Shown: positions 1-8,534 of the stretch, one piece after another
How the letters are laid out: every line of letters starts with the position of its first letter
Position numbering within the stretch: position 1 is the first letter of the stretch
Notes under the pieces: model-generated
What the model was told of the DNA's origin: nothing
The model's input: the letters and a program-made list of their open reading frames with translations, nothing else
The model's database searches: none
Source of the DNA: a virus
Taxonomy: Duplodnaviria > Heunggongvirae > Uroviricota > Caudoviricetes
Length of the DNA: 8,534 nucleotides
IMG/VR virus record: IMGVR_UViG_2695420403_000017
Reading direction: 5' to 3' (one strand)
Program-made: the position numbers and the translations under genes

Positions 1-219
1 TCACATCCACATAATTTGCTGCCCTGACGGCAACGGGTGCGGCCTCACGGCGTGGACTTCTCCCGGCTTCACGATGTATCGCTGTACCGACTCATAAGTG
101 ATGAACGTGGCGCTGCAATTCACGTTCTGACACTGGTGATAACGCTCTTTTGTCGTGTCAGTGATATAGCGACTTGTACGCGCATGTGCGGCATGCTGGC
201 ATAAAGGACAATGAAACAT
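1..219 (-). CDS. ogr: Late transcription activator Ogr (Cys4 zinc-finger), 72 aa
   Basis: Minus-strand ORF with stop at 1-3. Translation from the ATG at 217-219 (MFHCPLCQHAAHARTSRYITDTTKERYHQCQNVNC...) matches my recollection of P2 Ogr, including the C-x2-C-x22-C-x4-C motif. A GGAAGAGGTG Shine-Dalgarno sits 7 nt upstream of this ATG. The ORF track extends to 282 (93 aa), but that N-terminal extension has no comparable RBS and is absent from Ogr as I recall it. Confidence 0.85.
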   Translation of the reverse strand: MFHCPLCQHAAHARTSRYITDTTKERYHQCQNVNCSATFITYESVQRYIVKPGEVHAVRPHPLPSGQQIMWM

Positions 220-253
220 CGCGAGCACCTCTTCCGGTTTTGTTGATGGTGCC

Positions 254-282
254 ATTTTAGTTAATTTATCCTTATAAAACAA
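254..282 (-). promoter_or_regulatory. Candidate sigma70 promoter for ogr in the AT-rich D-ogr spacer
   Basis: On the minus strand, TTGTTT (plus 277-282) and TAAAAT (plus 254-259) are separated by 17 bp, about 35 nt upstream of the ogr ATG. Hexamer match by eye only. Confidence 0.3.
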
Positions 283-1957: not shown

Positions 1958-4405
1958 TTAACCGTCATGCATCATGCTGGCACGGGCGCGCGCACGTTTA
2001 TCCCGCTCGTATTTTTCGAGCGCATCCTGTAACTGGCGGTCAAGCTGTGTCCCCGGCGCAGTACCCCCCGTCAGGCTGATGTGATATTCGTTTTTACTCT
2101 GGTCCACATAAGAGCGGCCAGCCGGTGCCGTGACCGGCTGATAAGCCTGATAACCTGCATAAGAGCTGGTCGCCGGAATATAACCACCGCTGCCATACGT
2201 GGCGGCTTGAGTTCTGGCGGCGGTCTGGTCAAGTGTGTCTGACTCTTTGTTGATGACACCGAGTTTTTCCAGTACCCAGTCAATACCACTGCGCAGTTTG
2301 TTGAACGCATTAAGCGGCAGCATCAGCGCGTCAGCCAGTGCCTGCCCGAACATGACGCCCGTGTCACGGCAACGGTTCAGGGTGTCCTGGGTAGCTTTGA
2401 CCGGGGCAATCAGGTTTTTAAACCACTGCCACGCGGCCTGTAACTTTTCGCCCAGCCAGTCAAACACCGGCTTAAGTGGCGTGAACAGTTCCCCCACCGG
2501 CGCAAATGCCGCTTTCAGCCCTTCCATCACACCGCCAAAGAATGCGCTGACAGGCTCCCAGTATTTACGGATAAGCAACGCCCCGGCGACAATGGTGGCC
2601 ACCACGGCCACAACCGGCCAGCTAATCGCCCCGATGGCCGTCATAACAGCACTGCCAACCGTCGTGAAGACTGCCCCCATTGCGCCTGCTGCCGCGATGA
2701 TGGCATTGATGCCGGTGATAACCGGCCAGGCTACAAGACCAATTGCACCGATGATGCCAGTCAGCGCCAGTGCGCCACCGGCAATGAGACCAATGGTTGA
2801 CGCCAGTGATTTGTTTTTCTGTATCCAGCCGTCGAGTTTTAACACATACTTTGTGGCCGTCTGCGTGAGCTTACGCAGTGCGCCTTCCTGCTGGTCAAAC
2901 AGGTCTGTCCCCACCGCCTCATAAGCGGACTGAAACTCCTTAAAGTCACCGCCGAGGTTGTCCTGCATGATATTTACCAGCTCTTCCGTTTTACCGTCCG
3001 AGGCTTTCAGCGTGGCAGTCAGCTTATCCAGTTTTCCGCTTGCTGCCGCTGCCAGTAAAACGTTCGCTGATTTCAGTGCTTCCTCACCAAAAATGGTTTT
3101 AAGGTATTCCCCCTTCTGAGACGTTCCCAGCTTGTGTTTATCAAAGCTGGCCTGAATCTCTTTCAGAATGGTGAACAACGGACGCATATTTCCCTTTTTG
3201 TCCGAGGTTTTAACGCCAAGCTCTTTTAGTGCTTCCCATGCTTTCCCTGTCGGAGCCTGTAATCGGGTGACAACGGCACTACTACCCGTACCCGCCATTG
3301 ACCCCCTGATGTTATTGTCATGCAGCACACCTGTCATGGCCGCTGCCTGCTCAAGACTTACACCTGCCGTCCTCGCAACCGGACCGAGGTAAGTCAGTGC
3401 ATCACTGAGCCCCTGAAAATCAGCCGCCGACTTATTCATCGTTGCCGACAACACATCGCCCACATGGCTGACATCATCATTTGACAGTTGAAAGGATGCC
3501 TTGGTCCCCAGCAACAGTTGCGCGTTTTCTTCCATCGACCGCTGATTCGCCAGTGCCATATTCAGCGTGACCGGCGTTGCCGCCTGAATAGCCGCAGCAT
3601 CTCCACCCGCTTTCGCAATGATAATCTGCGCACCGGCTGCATCATCCGCCGAGGCGGCTGTGTTGTCGCCGAGCTGGCGCGCCTGTTTGCGTAGCGCGGC
3701 CATTTCGGCGGAATCTTTTGCCACACCGAGCACGGCCTGCAATTCTGAGTTTTTCTGCGCAAACTCATAACCGGGCATCAGCAGCTTAACTCCGGCCATC
3801 GTTCCCGCCGCCGCAATCCCCACACCGGCAGCGCCCACCGAGGCCATATTTCCGGCCAGTTCCTTGCCTGCCTGATAACGCTGTTTGACTGCGTTAAGTT
3901 TTGCCTGTTGCGCACTGACACGCGCCAGCGCGTCACGCTGCCGGTTAAGCTGTGCGGTGGTTTCACTGATACGGTTTTTCAGCCCTCGTTCATCATGCGC
4001 CAGATTACGGGTATTAATACCCGCCTGACTCAATTCCTGACGCTGGCGCTGTACCGACAATCTCAGGCTGTTATATTTCGCCTGTAACTCAGACGCATTT
4101 TTACGCGCGGCTTCCATTGCCTTTGCCTGTGCATTTGTCGGTCGTTCAGTATTTTTAAACTGGACAGCCAGAGCTGCGGCTTCCTGTCTGGCTTTTTTCA
4201 GTTCCTGACCAGTCACGGCGAGCTGTGCACTGGTCTTGCGAAATCCCTCAATACGGGATGCCTGACCGTTCAGCTCGCGCAGTGATTTTTGTGTGTCCCG
4301 GATATCCCCCGACAGCGACTTACTCGCTGTACGGATGGATTTAAACGGGCGGGATGCCTGGTCAACAGCCCTGAGCAATACCTGTAATTTTACATTGTTA
4401 CTCAT
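1958..4405 (-). CDS. T: Tail tape measure protein gpT, 815 aa
   Basis: 815-aa ORF, the length I recall for P2 gpT. It has an N-terminal coiled-coil-like Q/R/A/L-rich region and a central Gly/Ala-rich hydrophobic block (IGLIAGGALALTGIIGAIGLVAWPVITGINAIIAAAGAMGAV...) typical of tape measure proteins. It lies directly downstream of the E/E' chaperone pair. Confidence 0.9.
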   Translation of the reverse strand: MSNNVKLQVLLRAVDQASRPFKSIRTASKSLSGDIRDTQKSLRELNGQASRIEGFRKTSAQLAVTGQELKKARQEAAALAVQFKNTERPTNAQAKAMEAARKNASELQAKYNSLRLSVQRQRQELSQAGINTRNLAHDERGLKNRISETTAQLNRQRDALARVSAQQAKLNAVKQRYQAGKELAGNMASVGAAGVGIAAAGTMAGVKLLMPGYEFAQKNSELQAVLGVAKDSAEMAALRKQARQLGDNTAASADDAAGAQIIIAKAGGDAAAIQAATPVTLNMALANQRSMEENAQLLLGTKASFQLSNDDVSHVGDVLSATMNKSAADFQGLSDALTYLGPVARTAGVSLEQAAAMTGVLHDNNIRGSMAGTGSSAVVTRLQAPTGKAWEALKELGVKTSDKKGNMRPLFTILKEIQASFDKHKLGTSQKGEYLKTIFGEEALKSANVLLAAAASGKLDKLTATLKASDGKTEELVNIMQDNLGGDFKEFQSAYEAVGTDLFDQQEGALRKLTQTATKYVLKLDGWIQKNKSLASTIGLIAGGALALTGIIGAIGLVAWPVITGINAIIAAAGAMGAVFTTVGSAVMTAIGAISWPVVAVVATIVAGALLIRKYWEPVSAFFGGVMEGLKAAFAPVGELFTPLKPVFDWLGEKLQAAWQWFKNLIAPVKATQDTLNRCRDTGVMFGQALADALMLPLNAFNKLRSGIDWVLEKLGVINKESDTLDQTAARTQAATYGSGGYIPATSSYAGYQAYQPVTAPAGRSYVDQSKNEYHISLTGGTAPGTQLDRQLQDALEKYERDKRARARASMMHDG

Positions 4406-4825
4406 TCGTGTTTCCGCTTCGCCGGAGCGCCTTTTCGCGCCATGTGATGAGTTCGGTCAGGCTCATGGGATACAGTTCTGATGGCGGCCAGTGAAATATC
4501 ACTGCCACATCCGCCATCAGGTCATCGACCGAGAGATTTTTCGGAAACGTCACTGCACCGAGTTCGGCGACAAAAAACCGACCACCTTACCGGCCAGCGC
4601 CACAAGGTCAGGCAGTTCCAGCGCGGCGACCTCCTGCTCGGTCAGCATCGGTGCCGTCATGCGCGGCAGCACTTTAATCAGTGCATCGACTTCGGAGTTT
4701 GCGACCGCAGCCAGACTGACACCGCGCAGCGTCCCCGCACTGGGTTTCATCAGCGTGACCTGTTCGATAACCTGCTCACCACGCTTGACCGGATTGTCCA
4801 GGGTAATCACATTTTCTTTGTTCAT
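4398..4825 (-). CDS. E': Tail assembly chaperone E+E', 142-aa product of a programmed -1 frameshift
   Basis: Hand translation from the slippery site in the -1 frame gives VAELGAVTFPKNLSVDDLMADVAVIFHWPPSELYPMSLTELITWREKALRRSGNTNE, stopping at TAA (complement of 4398-4400), which overlaps the T start as ATGAGTAA. 85 aa from E plus 57 aa from E' gives 142 aa, the length I recall for P2 E+E'. Confidence 0.7.
4550..4825 (-). CDS. E: Tail assembly chaperone gpE, 91 aa
   Basis: 91-aa ORF between FII and T, ending ...KVVGFLSPNSVQ, with the slippery heptamer in its last codons. Size and position match P2 gpE. Confidence 0.85.
   Translation of the reverse strand: MNKENVITLDNPVKRGEQVIEQVTLMKPSAGTLRGVSLAAVANSEVDALIKVLPRMTAPMLTEQEVAALELPDLVALAGKVVGFLSPNSVQ
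4571..4577 (-). promoter_or_regulatory. Slippery heptamer T-TTT-TTG for the E to E' -1 ribosomal frameshift
   Basis: Minus-strand sequence GGT TTT TTG TCG reads as G-F-L-S in gpE. The run of six T followed by G is the classic -1 slip site for the tail chaperone pair, analogous to lambda G/GT. Confidence 0.7.
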
Positions 4826-4881: not shown

Positions 4882-5400
4882 TCACAGGCCGATATTGCGG
4901 CGGTGTTGCTCCAGCCGGTCGACGCCGTTCACCTTCTCAATCATGTTGATGGTGTCGATTTCGACCAGCTCCTTACCGTCCATCGTCAGCCGGAAATAGG
5001 TGCAGACCACGGAGATTTTCGACTCGGTGTCTTCTCCCTGTTTACCCTCGCCGGTGTCGATTTCTTTCTGACGTCCACGCATGACCACCTCGACGGCCAC
5101 CGTTTCGCCGGTATCGTCGCGCTGGTAAGAGCCTGCAAAACGAATCGGCACGGCATCCACACCGGTTGCGGCGTAAAGCTCCCAGATAACCGAATCCGGG
5201 AAGCCACCGAGCGACCACTCCATTGACAGCGCATCGTCATCAAGGCCGAGGTCTACCGGTGCGCTGCCGTTCATCCCCGCACCGCGATAGTTTTCGAGCT
5301 TACGGGTCAGTTTTGGCAGCGTGACGGACTTTGCAACGCCCTGATAGCTGTAGCCGTTCAGAAAGACGTTCATTAACTTGAGTTTGCGCGGCATTGCCAT
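4882..5400 (-). CDS. FII: Tail tube protein gpFII, 172 aa
   Basis: 172-aa ORF directly downstream of the sheath gene, matching P2 FII in size, position and sequence as I recall it (MAMPRKLKLMNVFLNGYSYQGVAKS...). AAGGAG Shine-Dalgarno 8 nt upstream, overlapping the FI stop. Confidence 0.9.
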   Translation of the reverse strand: MAMPRKLKLMNVFLNGYSYQGVAKSVTLPKLTRKLENYRGAGMNGSAPVDLGLDDDALSMEWSLGGFPDSVIWELYAATGVDAVPIRFAGSYQRDDTGETVAVEVVMRGRQKEIDTGEGKQGEDTESKISVVCTYFRLTMDGKELVEIDTINMIEKVNGVDRLEQHRRNIGL

Positions 5401-5412
5401 CGGTCAGGCTCC

Positions 5413-6603
5413 TTAATTGCTGTTAACCGAAGTGACCAGATTTGCCAGGTATTTATCGGTAATACGCTGGCGCAGGGTCAGGTTTTCAAGAGGAGGCACC
5501 GGGGTATAGTCGTAGTCGATATACAGTTTTCCGGCCTTGAGGGTTTCCGCATCGTTGGATTCTTCGCTGAACCAGCAGGTCGCATCCACGATATAGCCGT
5601 TTGTTTTCAGTTCACGGAATTTGGCATTAATGCCGTCAACGATGTCGCGAATCAGCGTTGCGGTGATGGGCTTGTCCACCGCCCACATGTGCGCCTCAGC
5701 CATCGTGTCGGCCAGCACCTGCGCGGTGCGGGTGTAGTTTTCAAAGAGGAACAGCGGGTCATCAGAGCAGGTACGGTTACCCCAGAATCGGAAACCGTCG
5801 CGGCGAATCAGCGTAGTGACGCCTGACTCGTTAAGCAGGTCAGCATCGGTGCCGGACTCCTGCAAATCCCAGAATACAGATGCGCTGATGCCGGTAACAC
5901 CGTTCACCCCGACATTGGACAGCGTTTTATGCCAGCCCTGCTCCTGGTCGATTTTAGCGCGCAGCCCCAGCGCACGGGCGGTGGCATACGCGGTGGCGGT
6001 GGTACTGGTGACCGTATCCCATGCGAGGAAATCCGGCCAGATGACCATCAGCTCACGCTGGCTGAAATTCTGGCGGTAGGCTTTCACCTCAGAAATGGTT
6101 TTACAGCCCCATGCGCTGATATACCCGAAAGCGCGCAGCTTCTGACAGACTGATGCCAGTGCAACAGCAACCTCTTTGGTGTCCAGTCCCGGCACACCGA
6201 GAATGCGCGGTTTAACGCCGGTAACCGACTCCGCGCCCATCAGGGCTTTCAGTCCGGTGTACTGACCGTTTTCGTCGGTGGTGCCGATAATATTGGAAAC
6301 GGTCTGCGCGAGTTTCGTTTCCTCGTCGTCGCCGGTGCCGTCTTCCACACGCACGACAACGGTGACCGGTTTTGACTGGTCGGCGATGGCCTGCAACGAT
6401 GCCGCCAGCGTGCCTTTTTTACCGGCCTTTGCAATTGCGCTCTGCACATTGGTAATCAGCACCGGTTTATTGAGGGGGAAGGTTTCCGCATCCGCATCGC
6501 TGGCCGTGCAGACCATGCCGACAATGGCAGTGGATACGGTGGAAATGACGCGGGTGCCGTCGTTAATCTCCAGCACCTGCACGCCGTGATGATAGTCACT
6601 CAT
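5413..6603 (-). CDS. FI: Contractile tail sheath protein gpFI, 396 aa
   Basis: 396-aa ORF, the size I recall for P2 FI, as first gene of the FI-FII-E-T-U-D block, with recognisable sequence (MSDYHHGVQVLEINDGTRVISTVSTAIVGMV...). GGAG Shine-Dalgarno 8 nt upstream. Confidence 0.9.
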   Translation of the reverse strand: MSDYHHGVQVLEINDGTRVISTVSTAIVGMVCTASDADAETFPLNKPVLITNVQSAIAKAGKKGTLAASLQAIADQSKPVTVVVRVEDGTGDDEETKLAQTVSNIIGTTDENGQYTGLKALMGAESVTGVKPRILGVPGLDTKEVAVALASVCQKLRAFGYISAWGCKTISEVKAYRQNFSQRELMVIWPDFLAWDTVTSTTATAYATARALGLRAKIDQEQGWHKTLSNVGVNGVTGISASVFWDLQESGTDADLLNESGVTTLIRRDGFRFWGNRTCSDDPLFLFENYTRTAQVLADTMAEAHMWAVDKPITATLIRDIVDGINAKFRELKTNGYIVDATCWFSEESNDAETLKAGKLYIDYDYTPVPPLENLTLRQRITDKYLANLVTSVNSN

Positions 6604-6634
6604 CCGTTTAACTCCGTGGTTAATGGGTGAGTGG

Positions 6635-6692
6635 TATTTTCAGTTGTGCCGGAGATGTCAGGCTATTTGTCCCGGTTGGCTAAGGGATGACA
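6635..6692 (-). promoter_or_regulatory. Candidate Ogr-dependent late promoter for the FI operon
   Basis: Minus strand TGTCATCCCTTAGCCAAC (plus 6675-6692) is a 5/6 match to the TGT-N12-ACA dyad of P2/P4 late promoters. Its centre lies about 45 bp upstream of a -10-like GAAAAT/AAAATA (plus 6635-6641), placing it near -55. The element overlaps the last codons of the invertase gene. Match by eye only. Confidence 0.3.
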
Positions 6693-7256
6693 CAATTTAT
6701 TCTTTGTCGCTGATGAGGGGAATTTTTTATAGAGCGTGGACAGGCCAATATCAAAAATCAGCGCCACACGTTGACGAGATTCCCCCGCAGCCAGCAACCG
6801 TCCGACCTGCTCCCACTCACTCGCGGTGAGTTTCGGTCGTCTGCCACCAATACGACCTTTGGCTCTGGCCGCTTCCAGCCCGGCCCGAGTCCGCTCGACA
6901 ATGAGTTCTCGCTCCATTTCAGCCAGGGCACCCATCACATGAAAGAAAAAACGCCCCATCGGCGTGCTGGTATCAATAGCATCTGTCAGGCTGCGAAAAT
7001 TAACGCCGCGTTCGCGCAGCTCCTCAACCAGAATGACCAGATGCCGCATACTACGCCCCAGCCGGTCCAGCTTCCAGACTACCAGAGTGTCACCTGCTGA
7101 TAATGTTCTGAGCAGTTTTTTCAGTCCCGGTCGGTCGGACTTCGTGCCGCTGATTTTATCCTCAAAAATCCGCTCGCATCCTGCGCACTCCAGCGCGTTA
7201 CGCTGCAATTCCGTGTTCTGGTCATTTGTCGACACGCGTACATAGCCAATAAGCAT
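6663..7256 (-). CDS. Serine DNA invertase (Pin/Gin/Hin/Cin family), about 197 aa
   Basis: N-terminus MLIGYVRVSTNDQNTELQRNAL carries the catalytic serine motif, and the C-terminus has a helix-turn-helix (GLSTLYKKF), both characteristic of Gin/Pin/Hin. Start chosen at the second ATG (7254-7256), which has an AGGGGG Shine-Dalgarno 6 nt upstream and reproduces the Gin/Pin N-terminus; the track ORF starts 2 codons earlier at 7262. The gene is adjacent to, and divergent from, a tail-fibre variable cassette. Confidence 0.85.
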   Translation of the reverse strand: MLIGYVRVSTNDQNTELQRNALECAGCERIFEDKISGTKSDRPGLKKLLRTLSAGDTLVVWKLDRLGRSMRHLVILVEELRERGVNFRSLTDAIDTSTPMGRFFFHVMGALAEMERELIVERTRAGLEAARAKGRIGGRRPKLTASEWEQVGRLLAAGESRQRVALIFDIGLSTLYKKFPSSATKNKLCHPLANRDK

Positions 7257-7283
7257 GAGCATCCCCCTGAATAAAAACCGGAG

Positions 7284-7781
7284 ATGATGCCACTTGCCCG
7301 TTATCTCTGCATTTTCATAAACGTTGGTTTGGGAGAAGGTGCTCCAGCTATTGGCGTTCCGTTCTTCTGGCCGTCCGCTGCAATGCCAAATACCGTAATC
7401 GACAGCTGGTCCAGTATGGTGTTTTTGAAGTTCAACGGGGTGAAATTTTCTGCCTCTGATTACCCTGTGCTGGCAAAAGTGTTTCCTTCGCTGGTATTAC
7501 CTGAAGCCCGCGGTGATTTCATTCGTATCTGGGATGATGGGCGAGGGGCGGACAGTGGGCGAGCATTATTAAGCTGGCAGGCAGCAACATCTTTATCGCA
7601 ATTTGGCGGTAATTATCCAGAAGGGTCCGGCCATGCGATTGCTGATTACGATGGAATATCAGCACACCAGCCAGGTTTCTCTCGATTTCAGTACACCAGT
7701 AACTCAGTAGGAGATGGTGTTAATTTTATTGCCGTCAGACCACGTAACATTGCATTTAACTTTCTGGTGAGGGCTAAATAA
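7284..7781 (+). CDS. Tail-fibre C-terminal variable cassette (Sv'-like), promoterless and probably in the silent orientation; functional frame likely begins at the crossover site near 7312
   Basis: The ORF has no credible start: GGAG abuts the first ATG with 0-3 nt spacing. Its frame runs through the candidate crossover site, and its stop overlaps the start of a downstream assembly gene (TAATG). It is divergent from and adjacent to the invertase, as in e14 stfE-pinE and the Mu G segment. The fibre-tip assignment rests on this architecture, not on recognised sequence. Confidence 0.6.
   Translation: MMPLARYLCIFINVGLGEGAPAIGVPFFWPSAAMPNTVIDSWSSMVFLKFNGVKFSASDYPVLAKVFPSLVLPEARGDFIRIWDDGRGADSGRALLSWQAATSLSQFGGNYPEGSGHAIADYDGISAHQPGFSRFQYTSNSVGDGVNFIAVRPRNIAFNFLVRAK
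7312..7337 (+). promoter_or_regulatory. Candidate 26-bp recombination crossover site (gix/hix/pix-like)
   Basis: TTTTCATAAACG-TT-GGTTTGGGAGAA has two imperfect inverted half-sites around a central dinucleotide, with the AAAC..GGTTT core and terminal TT/AA of hix/gix sites (about 16-18 of 26 against the sites as I recall them). It lies about 55 bp upstream of the invertase start and inside the fibre cassette reading frame, where constant and variable fibre parts join in Mu, P1 and e14. Confidence 0.45.
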
Positions 7782-8374
7782 TGAAACCTGTTTTTGATGA
7801 AAATGGACTGGCTACAGTGCCGGGTGATATGCGTTGTTTTTATTATGATGCAGTAACGTATGAATATACGGGCTGGTCTGATGAATATATTAATACTGGT
7901 GTAAGTATGCCCGCCTGTTCCACTGGTATTGACCCGGGCGAAAACATTCCGGGAAAAGTGGCAGTATTTACAGGTAAGGGATGGAGCCATGAAGAAGACC
8001 ATCGCAATGAGACTGTTTACTCAATCGAAAATGGTGCTGCTGTTACAGTGGATTATATCGGTGCCATCAAAAACGGTTATGTCACGCTTTCACCGTTAAC
8101 GCCATATGATAAATGGGATGGTGAGAAATGGGTGACAGATACTGAGGCACAACACGGTGCCGCAGTAGAAGCGGCAGAAGCACAGCGCCAGTCACTGATT
8201 GATGCAGCAATGGCTTCCATTAGTCCGATTCAGCTGAAATTACAGGCCGGGCGGAAACTGACGCAGGCAGAAACAACCCGGCTTAACGCTGTGCTGGATT
8301 ACATTGACGCGGTGACGGCAACAGATACCAGCACCGCGCCGGATGTCATCTGGCCTGAACTGCCGGAGGCGTAG
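7781..8374 (+). CDS. Tail fibre assembly protein (Tfa/gpG/Mu U family), 197 aa
   Basis: 197-aa ORF coupled to the fibre cassette, with the Tfa-like C-terminal motif ...[16 protein letters not shown]. It converges on a second Tfa-like gene on the opposite strand. Confidence 0.75.
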
Positions 8375-8534
8375 GCCATTCAATATCGGGTGCTGTTGAC
8401 GTATCAACACGCATCAGCAGCACACGGTATTTCTTCCATTGGGTGAGAGTTGTAGCTTCTTCATCAGTTGCGATATCAGCATCAACAGCATCCTGACGCC
8501 AGGATATTTCACTGTCAGCTTTTTCCCGTAATTG
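8346..8534 (-). CDS. Tail fibre assembly protein, second copy (3' portion only; 5' end beyond the window)
   Basis: Hand translation of the minus strand from the window edge gives ...[53 protein letters not shown], with stop TGA at the complement of 8346-8348. It shares the DTSTAPD(I/V)xWP motif with the plus-strand copy. The ORF is open to the window edge and absent from the ORF track because it is truncated. Confidence 0.6.

Follow-up and report, generated by a model that had tools for sequence, protein, structure and literature searches.

Tail-fibre genes are recognised as one of the classes of genes on which programmed inversion acts (PMC9881135), and the locus considered here raises the question of whether a fibre cassette that lies beside a DNA invertase gene and has neither start nor promoter belongs to such a switch. 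The window, that is, the whole stretch of 8,534 nucleotides that was analysed, comes from a Caudoviricetes record (IMGVR_UViG_2695420403_000017). An initial annotation had proposed that a 26-bp sequence at 7312-7337 resembles the hix, gix and pix crossover sites and marks the place where the cassette would be joined to a constant fibre part. The evidence gathered below makes it very probable that 7312-7337 serves a Pin-type inversion switch in a P2-like prophage as the recombination site next to the invertase gene. The inversion system itself is already known, and the window holds another allele of it with its own pair of cassettes. Work on Mu, P1 and e14 in the 1980s had already made the site, the enzyme family and the logic of host-range switching familiar.

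Most of the window is occupied by P2-type late genes, all read from the minus strand: D (301-1464), U (1464-1943), the tape measure gene T (1958-4405), E/E' (4398-4825), the tube gene FII (4882-5400) and the sheath gene FI (5413-6603). An Ogr/Delta zinc-finger ORF (1-282, minus strand; Pfam 2e-21) occupies the place expected of it downstream of D in P2-like phages, and the entire P2-like tail module within the window is intact. Near the end of the gpE-like chaperone ORF (4550-4825), the minus strand carries a TTTTTTG run at 4571-4577, within GGTTTTTTG, and a GpE-family ORF (4398-4553) comes next in another frame. The run looks like the programmed -1 frameshift signal of P2 E/E+E'.

The 26-mer TTTTCATAAACGTTGGTTTGGGAGAA stands on the plus strand at 7312-7337 and occurs only once in the window, even with three mismatches permitted. 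It has the layout of a Din-type site, in which imperfectly symmetric 12-bp half-sites surround a 2-bp core: an outer half TTTTCATAAACG at 7312-7323, the core TT at 7324-7325 and an inner half GGTTTGGGAGAA at 7326-7337 (12+2+12 nt). The six bases that follow, GGTGCT at 7338-7343 on the plus strand, encode Gly-Ala and extend the inverted repeat inwards; they are common to both segment ends, directly after the inner half of both sites in four related genomes (L001, L002, L016 and L017). A half-site weight matrix was derived solely from the annotated sites of Mu (gixL and gixR, at the annotated boundaries of the G segment) and P1 (cixL and cixR, at the annotated crossover points), independently of the window sequence. 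With this matrix the site scores 20.9 bits and the runner-up 26-mer in the window 5.4, while the best scores of 200 simulated windows (first-order Markov) averaged 7.2 and reached a maximum of 14.3. All 26 positions of the site also agree with the pinE-proximal site of e14 in E. coli K-12 MG1655 (L006 5606-5631), which reads as the reverse complement TTCTCCCAAACCAACGTTTATGAAAA. Given this identity and the matrix score, the resemblance to gix, cix and pix is far beyond chance. The sequence belongs to the hix/gix/cix/pix class, as the initial annotation had recognised, and it is the e14 pinE-proximal site itself. Inversion of the 1,797-bp P segment of e14 has been mapped to the inverted repeats TTGGTTTGGGAGAAGG and CCTTCTCCCAAACCAA; it depends on the invertase and is locked by invertase deletion (PMC12529663, 2025). 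The 16-mer TTGGTTTGGGAGAAGG corresponds exactly to window positions 7324-7339.

The site is adjoined by a gene for a cognate small serine recombinase with a Resolvase domain and a C-terminal HTH, as is the rule for Din invertases. This gene (6663-7256, minus strand) encodes a serine DNA invertase of the Pin/Gin/Cin/Hin group of 197 amino acids, assigned by Pfam (Resolvase 8e-53, HTH_7 5.5e-13), by PHROG ('DNA invertase', 6.7e-101) and by homology. The protein shares 86% identity with PinE, 76% with Gin and 78% with Cin. Its ORF is full length, the N-terminal MLIGYVRVST motif is intact, and every residue invariant among Pin, Gin and Cin is present; relative to PinE it carries a C-terminal extension of 13 amino acids. 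The start codon lies 55 bp to the left of the site, with a spacing of 54 bp in e14 and Mu, and the alignment to e14 is almost gap-free over the stretch that runs from the site up to and including the start codon. The ORF offers two in-frame ATGs, at 7262 and 7256, separated by six bases; to judge from the homologues PinE, Gin and Cin, 7256 is probably the start and the ATG at 7262 is unused. A simple promoter scan found no sigma-70-like invertase promoter between the start codon and the site.

The recombinational enhancer may also lie in this gene, near its 5' end. Positions 7167-7238 (minus strand) correspond to nucleotides 19-90 of the gene and show a gap-free match to the annotated enhancer of P1, at nucleotides 19-90 of cin, making them a putative Fis-binding 'sis' element about 122 bp from the site core. 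Identity over this stretch is 76% to P1, 83% to pinE and 72% to gin, compared with 67%, 77% and 70%, respectively, over the remainder of the gene. The conserved 15-mer GTGTCGACAAATGAC (gene nucleotides 22-36) is shared with pinE and gin; the scan for Fis-like motifs that picked it up was too loose for this to carry weight.

A crossover site requires an inverted partner, which the initial annotation expected beyond the right edge of the window, inside the expressed fibre gene. The source contig (CYDW01000020.1, GCA_001283865.2) stops 2 bases past the window and inside the invertible segment, and the partner was sought in relatives. Apart from those 2 bases the window coincides with the end of this contig, an identity confirmed directly over 6,754 of the 8,534 bases. 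The closest complete genome, that of E. coli fEC.1 (L001), is 97% identical over window positions 6600-8534; its gene order matches that of the window and then continues into the tail-fibre gene H, followed by I, J, W and V. No second, inverted copy of the 26-mer turned up in fEC.1 when as many as 3 mismatches were tolerated. An inverted-repeat search of the same genome did recover a 32-nt pair, at 6713-6744 and 8453-8484, which places the partner at 8459-8484, in inverted orientation and inside H (8177-9298, minus strand). On the plus strand this partner reads TTCTCCAAAACC-AA-GGTATGCGAGAA, and on the minus strand TTCTCGCATACC-TT-GGTTTTGGAGAA. The two fEC.1 sites have identical cores, and their inner halves differ at a single base (G/T, site position 20). 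Conservation between partners extends over the core, the inner half (11-12 of 12 positions) and the following 6 bp, and falls to 7 of 12 in the outer halves. Because the outer halves differ, a search for a full copy of the 26-mer, the check put forward in the initial annotation, gives a false negative that would wrongly have counted against the site: the inverted partner with an identical core exists, but it is not a copy of the whole 26-mer. Both fEC.1 sites start at codon position 2 of their frames, and this shared codon phase means that inversion keeps the reading frame.

An inverted partner with an identical core is also present in seven further related loci (L002 and L012-L017) and in e14; the site pair of L010 is the same as that of e14, and the distal site of L009 is similar. 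Two metagenome contigs (L004 and L005) come closer still to the window, being 100% identical to it over 7324-8534 (1,211 bp). Both carry the inner half and core of the partner, and give a segment of 1,748 bp from TT to AA, or 1,746 bp from core to core. Projected from these contigs, the partner would lie at window-equivalent positions 9058-9083, about 0.5 kb beyond the right edge, and the expectation of a partner in the expressed fibre gene is borne out by the fEC.1 site in H with the same core and phase. Among species-representative genomes the exact 26-mer was found at only three loci, two in E. coli and one in Shigella flexneri. Two of these have an inverted partner within 2 kb, and that of the third would fall outside the stretch examined.

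The same comparisons bear on the reading that the site is a genuine pix-type site but a frozen relic, in which the partner, the constant fibre part or the invertase activity has been lost and the cassette is permanently silent. The source contig does end inside the segment and holds no partner, prophage tail modules often decay, and the simple scan detected no promoter for the invertase. Against this, the invertase ORF is complete and keeps every residue that never varies among Pin, Gin and Cin, the P2-like tail module is intact, the metagenome contigs identical to the window over 1,211 bp hold the complete segment with the inner half and core of the partner, and close relatives occur in both orientations. 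A decayed relic is thus very unlikely, and was rejected in favour of a switch of the Pin type. The end of the source contig itself falls within the second assembly gene and not at the crossover site; the 3' ends of assembly genes recur from prophage to prophage, with matches at a median of 2 places per genome, and this is the likely cause of the break.

Evidence for inversion at the site comes from natural isomers. The fEC.1 sequence was inverted at the cores in silico, and each of the predicted junctions was searched in complete E. coli genomes. The junction of the constant part of H with the window-type cassette was found with at least 80% coverage in 36 genomes, and that of the invertase side with the other cassette, at the same coverage, in 72; the top matches to both are full length and in a single piece. 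The cleanest pair of isomers consists of NMBU-W12E19 (L017), in the state of the window, and E2 (L002), which is flipped. Their flanks are 98.8% (left) and 99.8% (right) identical, and the 1,751-bp alignment of the segment between them is 99.94% identical and inverted. In the two genomes the invertase-side outer half, TTTTCATAAACG, and the H-side outer half, TTCTCGCATA(C/T)C, are both unmoved, and the inner halves, the G/T marker and the downstream cassette are swapped. Comparison of fEC.1 with E2 agrees with this pair: the outer halves are fixed, including position 12, and the G/T marker (window position 7331) moves with the segment. The window itself is colinear with E2 up to 7343 and inverted from 7324. 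Since the outer base adjacent to the core differs between the sites (G versus C), as does site position 20, strand exchange is confined to the interval TTGGTTT at 7324-7330. This interval would fit cleavage at the TT core, 7324-7325, as known for the family. Mapping of the inversion junctions, also suggested in the initial annotation, therefore places the natural junctions at the site, although the resolution is 7 bp and not that of the 2-bp stagger.

The metagenome contigs offer a further indication. L005 begins exactly at the TT core and ends exactly at the AA core, and L004 likewise ends exactly at AA. Contig breaks at the cores are the outcome expected of a de Bruijn assembly when both orientations are present in the sample, which is supportive of active inversion but not conclusive, as such ends could instead reflect mixed strains fixed in opposite orientations.

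The isomers might alternatively have arisen by RecA-dependent homologous recombination between short inverted repeats and not by a site-specific reaction. The segment ends do share an inverted repeat of 20-32 bp, and the comparative data place the crossover to 7 bp only; yet RecA-dependent exchange would have very little shared sequence to act on, a dedicated invertase gene stands next to the site, and assembly breaks occur exactly at the core dinucleotide. Moreover, inversion at the identical e14 site is invertase-dependent and is locked when the invertases are deleted (PMC12529663), leaving RecA-mediated inversion scarcely credible, and it was rejected. Chance resemblance of a mere coding or spacer sequence to hix, gix or pix, which has in its favour nothing beyond the general capacity of short motifs to recur, is equally hard to credit and was likewise rejected, given a score well above the simulated maximum, full identity to the e14 site, an adjacent invertase and natural isomers that break at the site.

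With the site assigned to a Pin-type switch, the sequence to its right can be understood as the silent alternative of a fibre gene. The variable part of H in the window is a promoterless tail-fibre C-terminal cassette at 7324-7781 (plus strand), in the frame of ORF 7284-7781. Its product matches PHROG tail fibre families at C-terminal profile positions only (7e-48 and 3e-42), and RefSeq labels its equivalent in fEC.1 'phage tail protein, missing N-terminus'. A scan of 7150-7450 detected no promoter-like or terminator signal, a result that fits a promoterless cassette and is uninformative on the promoter of the invertase. Followed leftwards from the site, the frame meets a stop 18 codons away and covers only the spacer that separates the site from the invertase gene; the ATG at 7284 is therefore fortuitous. 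The initial annotation was correct in placing the site within the tail-fibre frame and at the join of the promoterless cassette, as the site stands in frame at the 5' end of the cassette and is preceded by constant H codons after the flip, but the ORF has no real start at 7284.

A tail-fibre assembly (chaperone) gene travels with the silent cassette (7781-8374, plus strand; Caudo_TAP 6e-28, PHROG 7e-84). The 3' end of a second assembly gene, belonging to the expressed fibre variant, follows at 8346-8534 on the minus strand (Caudo_TAP 2e-19, PHROG 2.5e-24); window and contig both break off within this gene, and a complete 142-aa version is found in fEC.1 and in both metagenome contigs. The two assembly genes converge in the middle of the segment, with 3' ends that overlap by 29 bp (8346-8374).

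In the flipped genomes L002, L012 and L013, H is an uninterrupted gene of 427 codons that ends in the silent cassette of the window, reading ...GKDVAGLLAYLG/LGEGAPAIGVPFFWPSAAMPNTVI...FLVRAK and a stop. The constant part of H comprises the N-terminal 271 codons, and the fusion point is ...LLAYLG/LGEGAPAIGVPFFWP... (slashes mark the junction). The locus thus shows the make-up of a fibre switch: two sites in the same codon phase, a constant N-terminus and alternative C-termini, each with a chaperone. RefSeq/PGAP splits flipped-state H into two 'incomplete' pseudogene pieces (L002 4690-5973; L012, L013 and L014 2075-3358). The split is an annotation artefact of chimeric invertible genes, as the 1,284-nt frame is intact in L002, L012 and L013.

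Unrelated fibre C-termini start right after the same inner half-site in other E. coli prophages (for example, GCGGCTAAAAGG... and GGCTCAGCATTACC...), and sites precede unrelated cassettes at L012 4724-4749, L013 4728-4753 and L015 4623-4648. As different cassettes have been joined at the same position in these three loci, the site is also an evolutionary module boundary. The window cassette is about 84% identical to the side-tail-fibre ends of the lambdoid phages mEp213 and mEp043. A phage collection shows modular sharing of the window cassettes with lambdoid as well as P2-like phages. The locus is rearranged in strain Z1322HEC0009 (L014 4635-5303), where the invertase-side outer half is TTCCATAAAACG and about 0.6 kb, including a 'hypothetical protein' gene, separates the site from the invertase gene.

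The reaction at this locus can be envisaged from the family. In the Hin, Gin, Cin and Pin systems, the invertase dimers on the two sites form a complex with an enhancer that carries Fis, and the DNA is supercoiled. Each 2-bp core is cleaved on both strands, with 2-nt 3' overhangs and a phosphoserine linkage to the enzyme as the result; rotation of subunits then swaps the half-sites, and religation needs identical cores. By analogy, one invertase dimer would bind 7312-7337 and a second the inverted partner in H, with the cores 1,746 bp apart, and Fis would occupy the putative enhancer at 7167-7238, a dependence suggested by the family. The invertase would cut both sites at the central TT/AA, rotate one pair of half-sites by 180 degrees and religate them. 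The result would be a flip of the 1,748-bp segment, with its two alternative fibre C-termini and the assembly chaperone that belongs to each. In the orientation of the window, the cassette at 7324-7781 and its chaperone at 7781-8374 would be silent; after inversion the cassette would be fused in frame to the 271 constant codons of H, presumably changing receptor specificity. The chemistry of cleavage at the core, the dependence on Fis and the enhancer, and the effect on host range are thus predictions drawn from homologous systems.

One of the closest known systems is that of e14, where the invertases are 86% identical and the invertase gene, like the one here, stands outside the segment and points its 5' end at the site, at a spacing of 54-55 bp. 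In both elements a segment of about 1.75-1.8 kb contains two fibre C-termini and two chaperones (stfP-tfaP and tfaE-stfE in e14). However, e14 is a defective lambdoid element, whereas the window comes from a P2-like myovirus prophage with an intact tail module; the distal outer half is CTCTCGAAAACC in e14 and TTCTCGCATACC here, and the cassettes differ as well. The possibility that the element is e14 itself, which lies at icd and carries stfP, tfaP, tfaE, stfE, pinE and mcrA, was rejected, since the tail module is of P2 type and only the site and the invertase are shared.

Like the G segment of Mu and the C segment of P1, the locus combines a constant fibre N-terminus with alternative C-termini and linked chaperones, and all three would have an enhancer near the 5' end of the gene for the invertase. 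The sites of Mu (gix) and P1 (cix) are also 26 bp long, with imperfect 12-bp halves (..AAACC / GGTTT..) around a 2-bp core. The core here is TT/AA, as in cix, and differs from the GA/TC core of gix. The segment, at 1.75 kb, is smaller than those of Mu (3 kb) and P1 (4.2 kb), and the invertase is 76-78% identical to Gin and Cin. The invertase gene faces the site with its 5' end, as in Mu; P1 differs in that cixL is bordered by the 3' end of cin.

Also close are the invertible fibre loci of other P2-like prophages of E. coli, for example in EPEC E2348/69, which have the same order of sheath gene, invertase gene, inverted cassette with chaperones, and H, and show no substantive difference from the locus in the window. 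Tail-fibre inversion and phase variation at such loci were found by whole-genome sequencing in EPEC (PMC4272514). One EPEC locus has three repeats and forms a shufflon, whereas two sites are seen here. The phage collection contains examples of P2-like elements with an invertase gene between FI and the fibre gene, such as phage pro483 and, in a strain of serotype O157:H43, a P2-type prophage, and no record in it covers at least 80% of the region. Besides pro483, further Peduovirus records bear a DNA invertase annotation.

The value of the assignment lies in annotation rather than discovery, and no new biological question is opened by it. The locus is a clean case in which base-level inversion junctions were recovered from public genomes alone. 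Inversion may explain the fragmentation of short-read assemblies near the locus, although the source contig itself breaks inside the segment and not at a crossover site, and it does explain why RefSeq splits an H gene that is intact in the flipped state.

Wider consequences are a matter of speculation. The e14 segment is reportedly flipped by several chromosomal invertases (PinE, PinQ and PinR), with an anti-phage effect. Together with the e14-identical site, this makes it conceivable that the fibre switch is driven in trans by invertases of the host or of other prophages, and vice versa. Chimeric fibres might also have a part in superinfection exclusion, beyond the host range of the virion, and identical sites in two prophages of the same chromosome could support large inversions or deletions between them; this extended reading is at present an unlikely one. 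For the prophage itself, inversion accounts for a cassette at 7324-7781 that has neither start nor promoter, and a pseudogene label for it is unwarranted.
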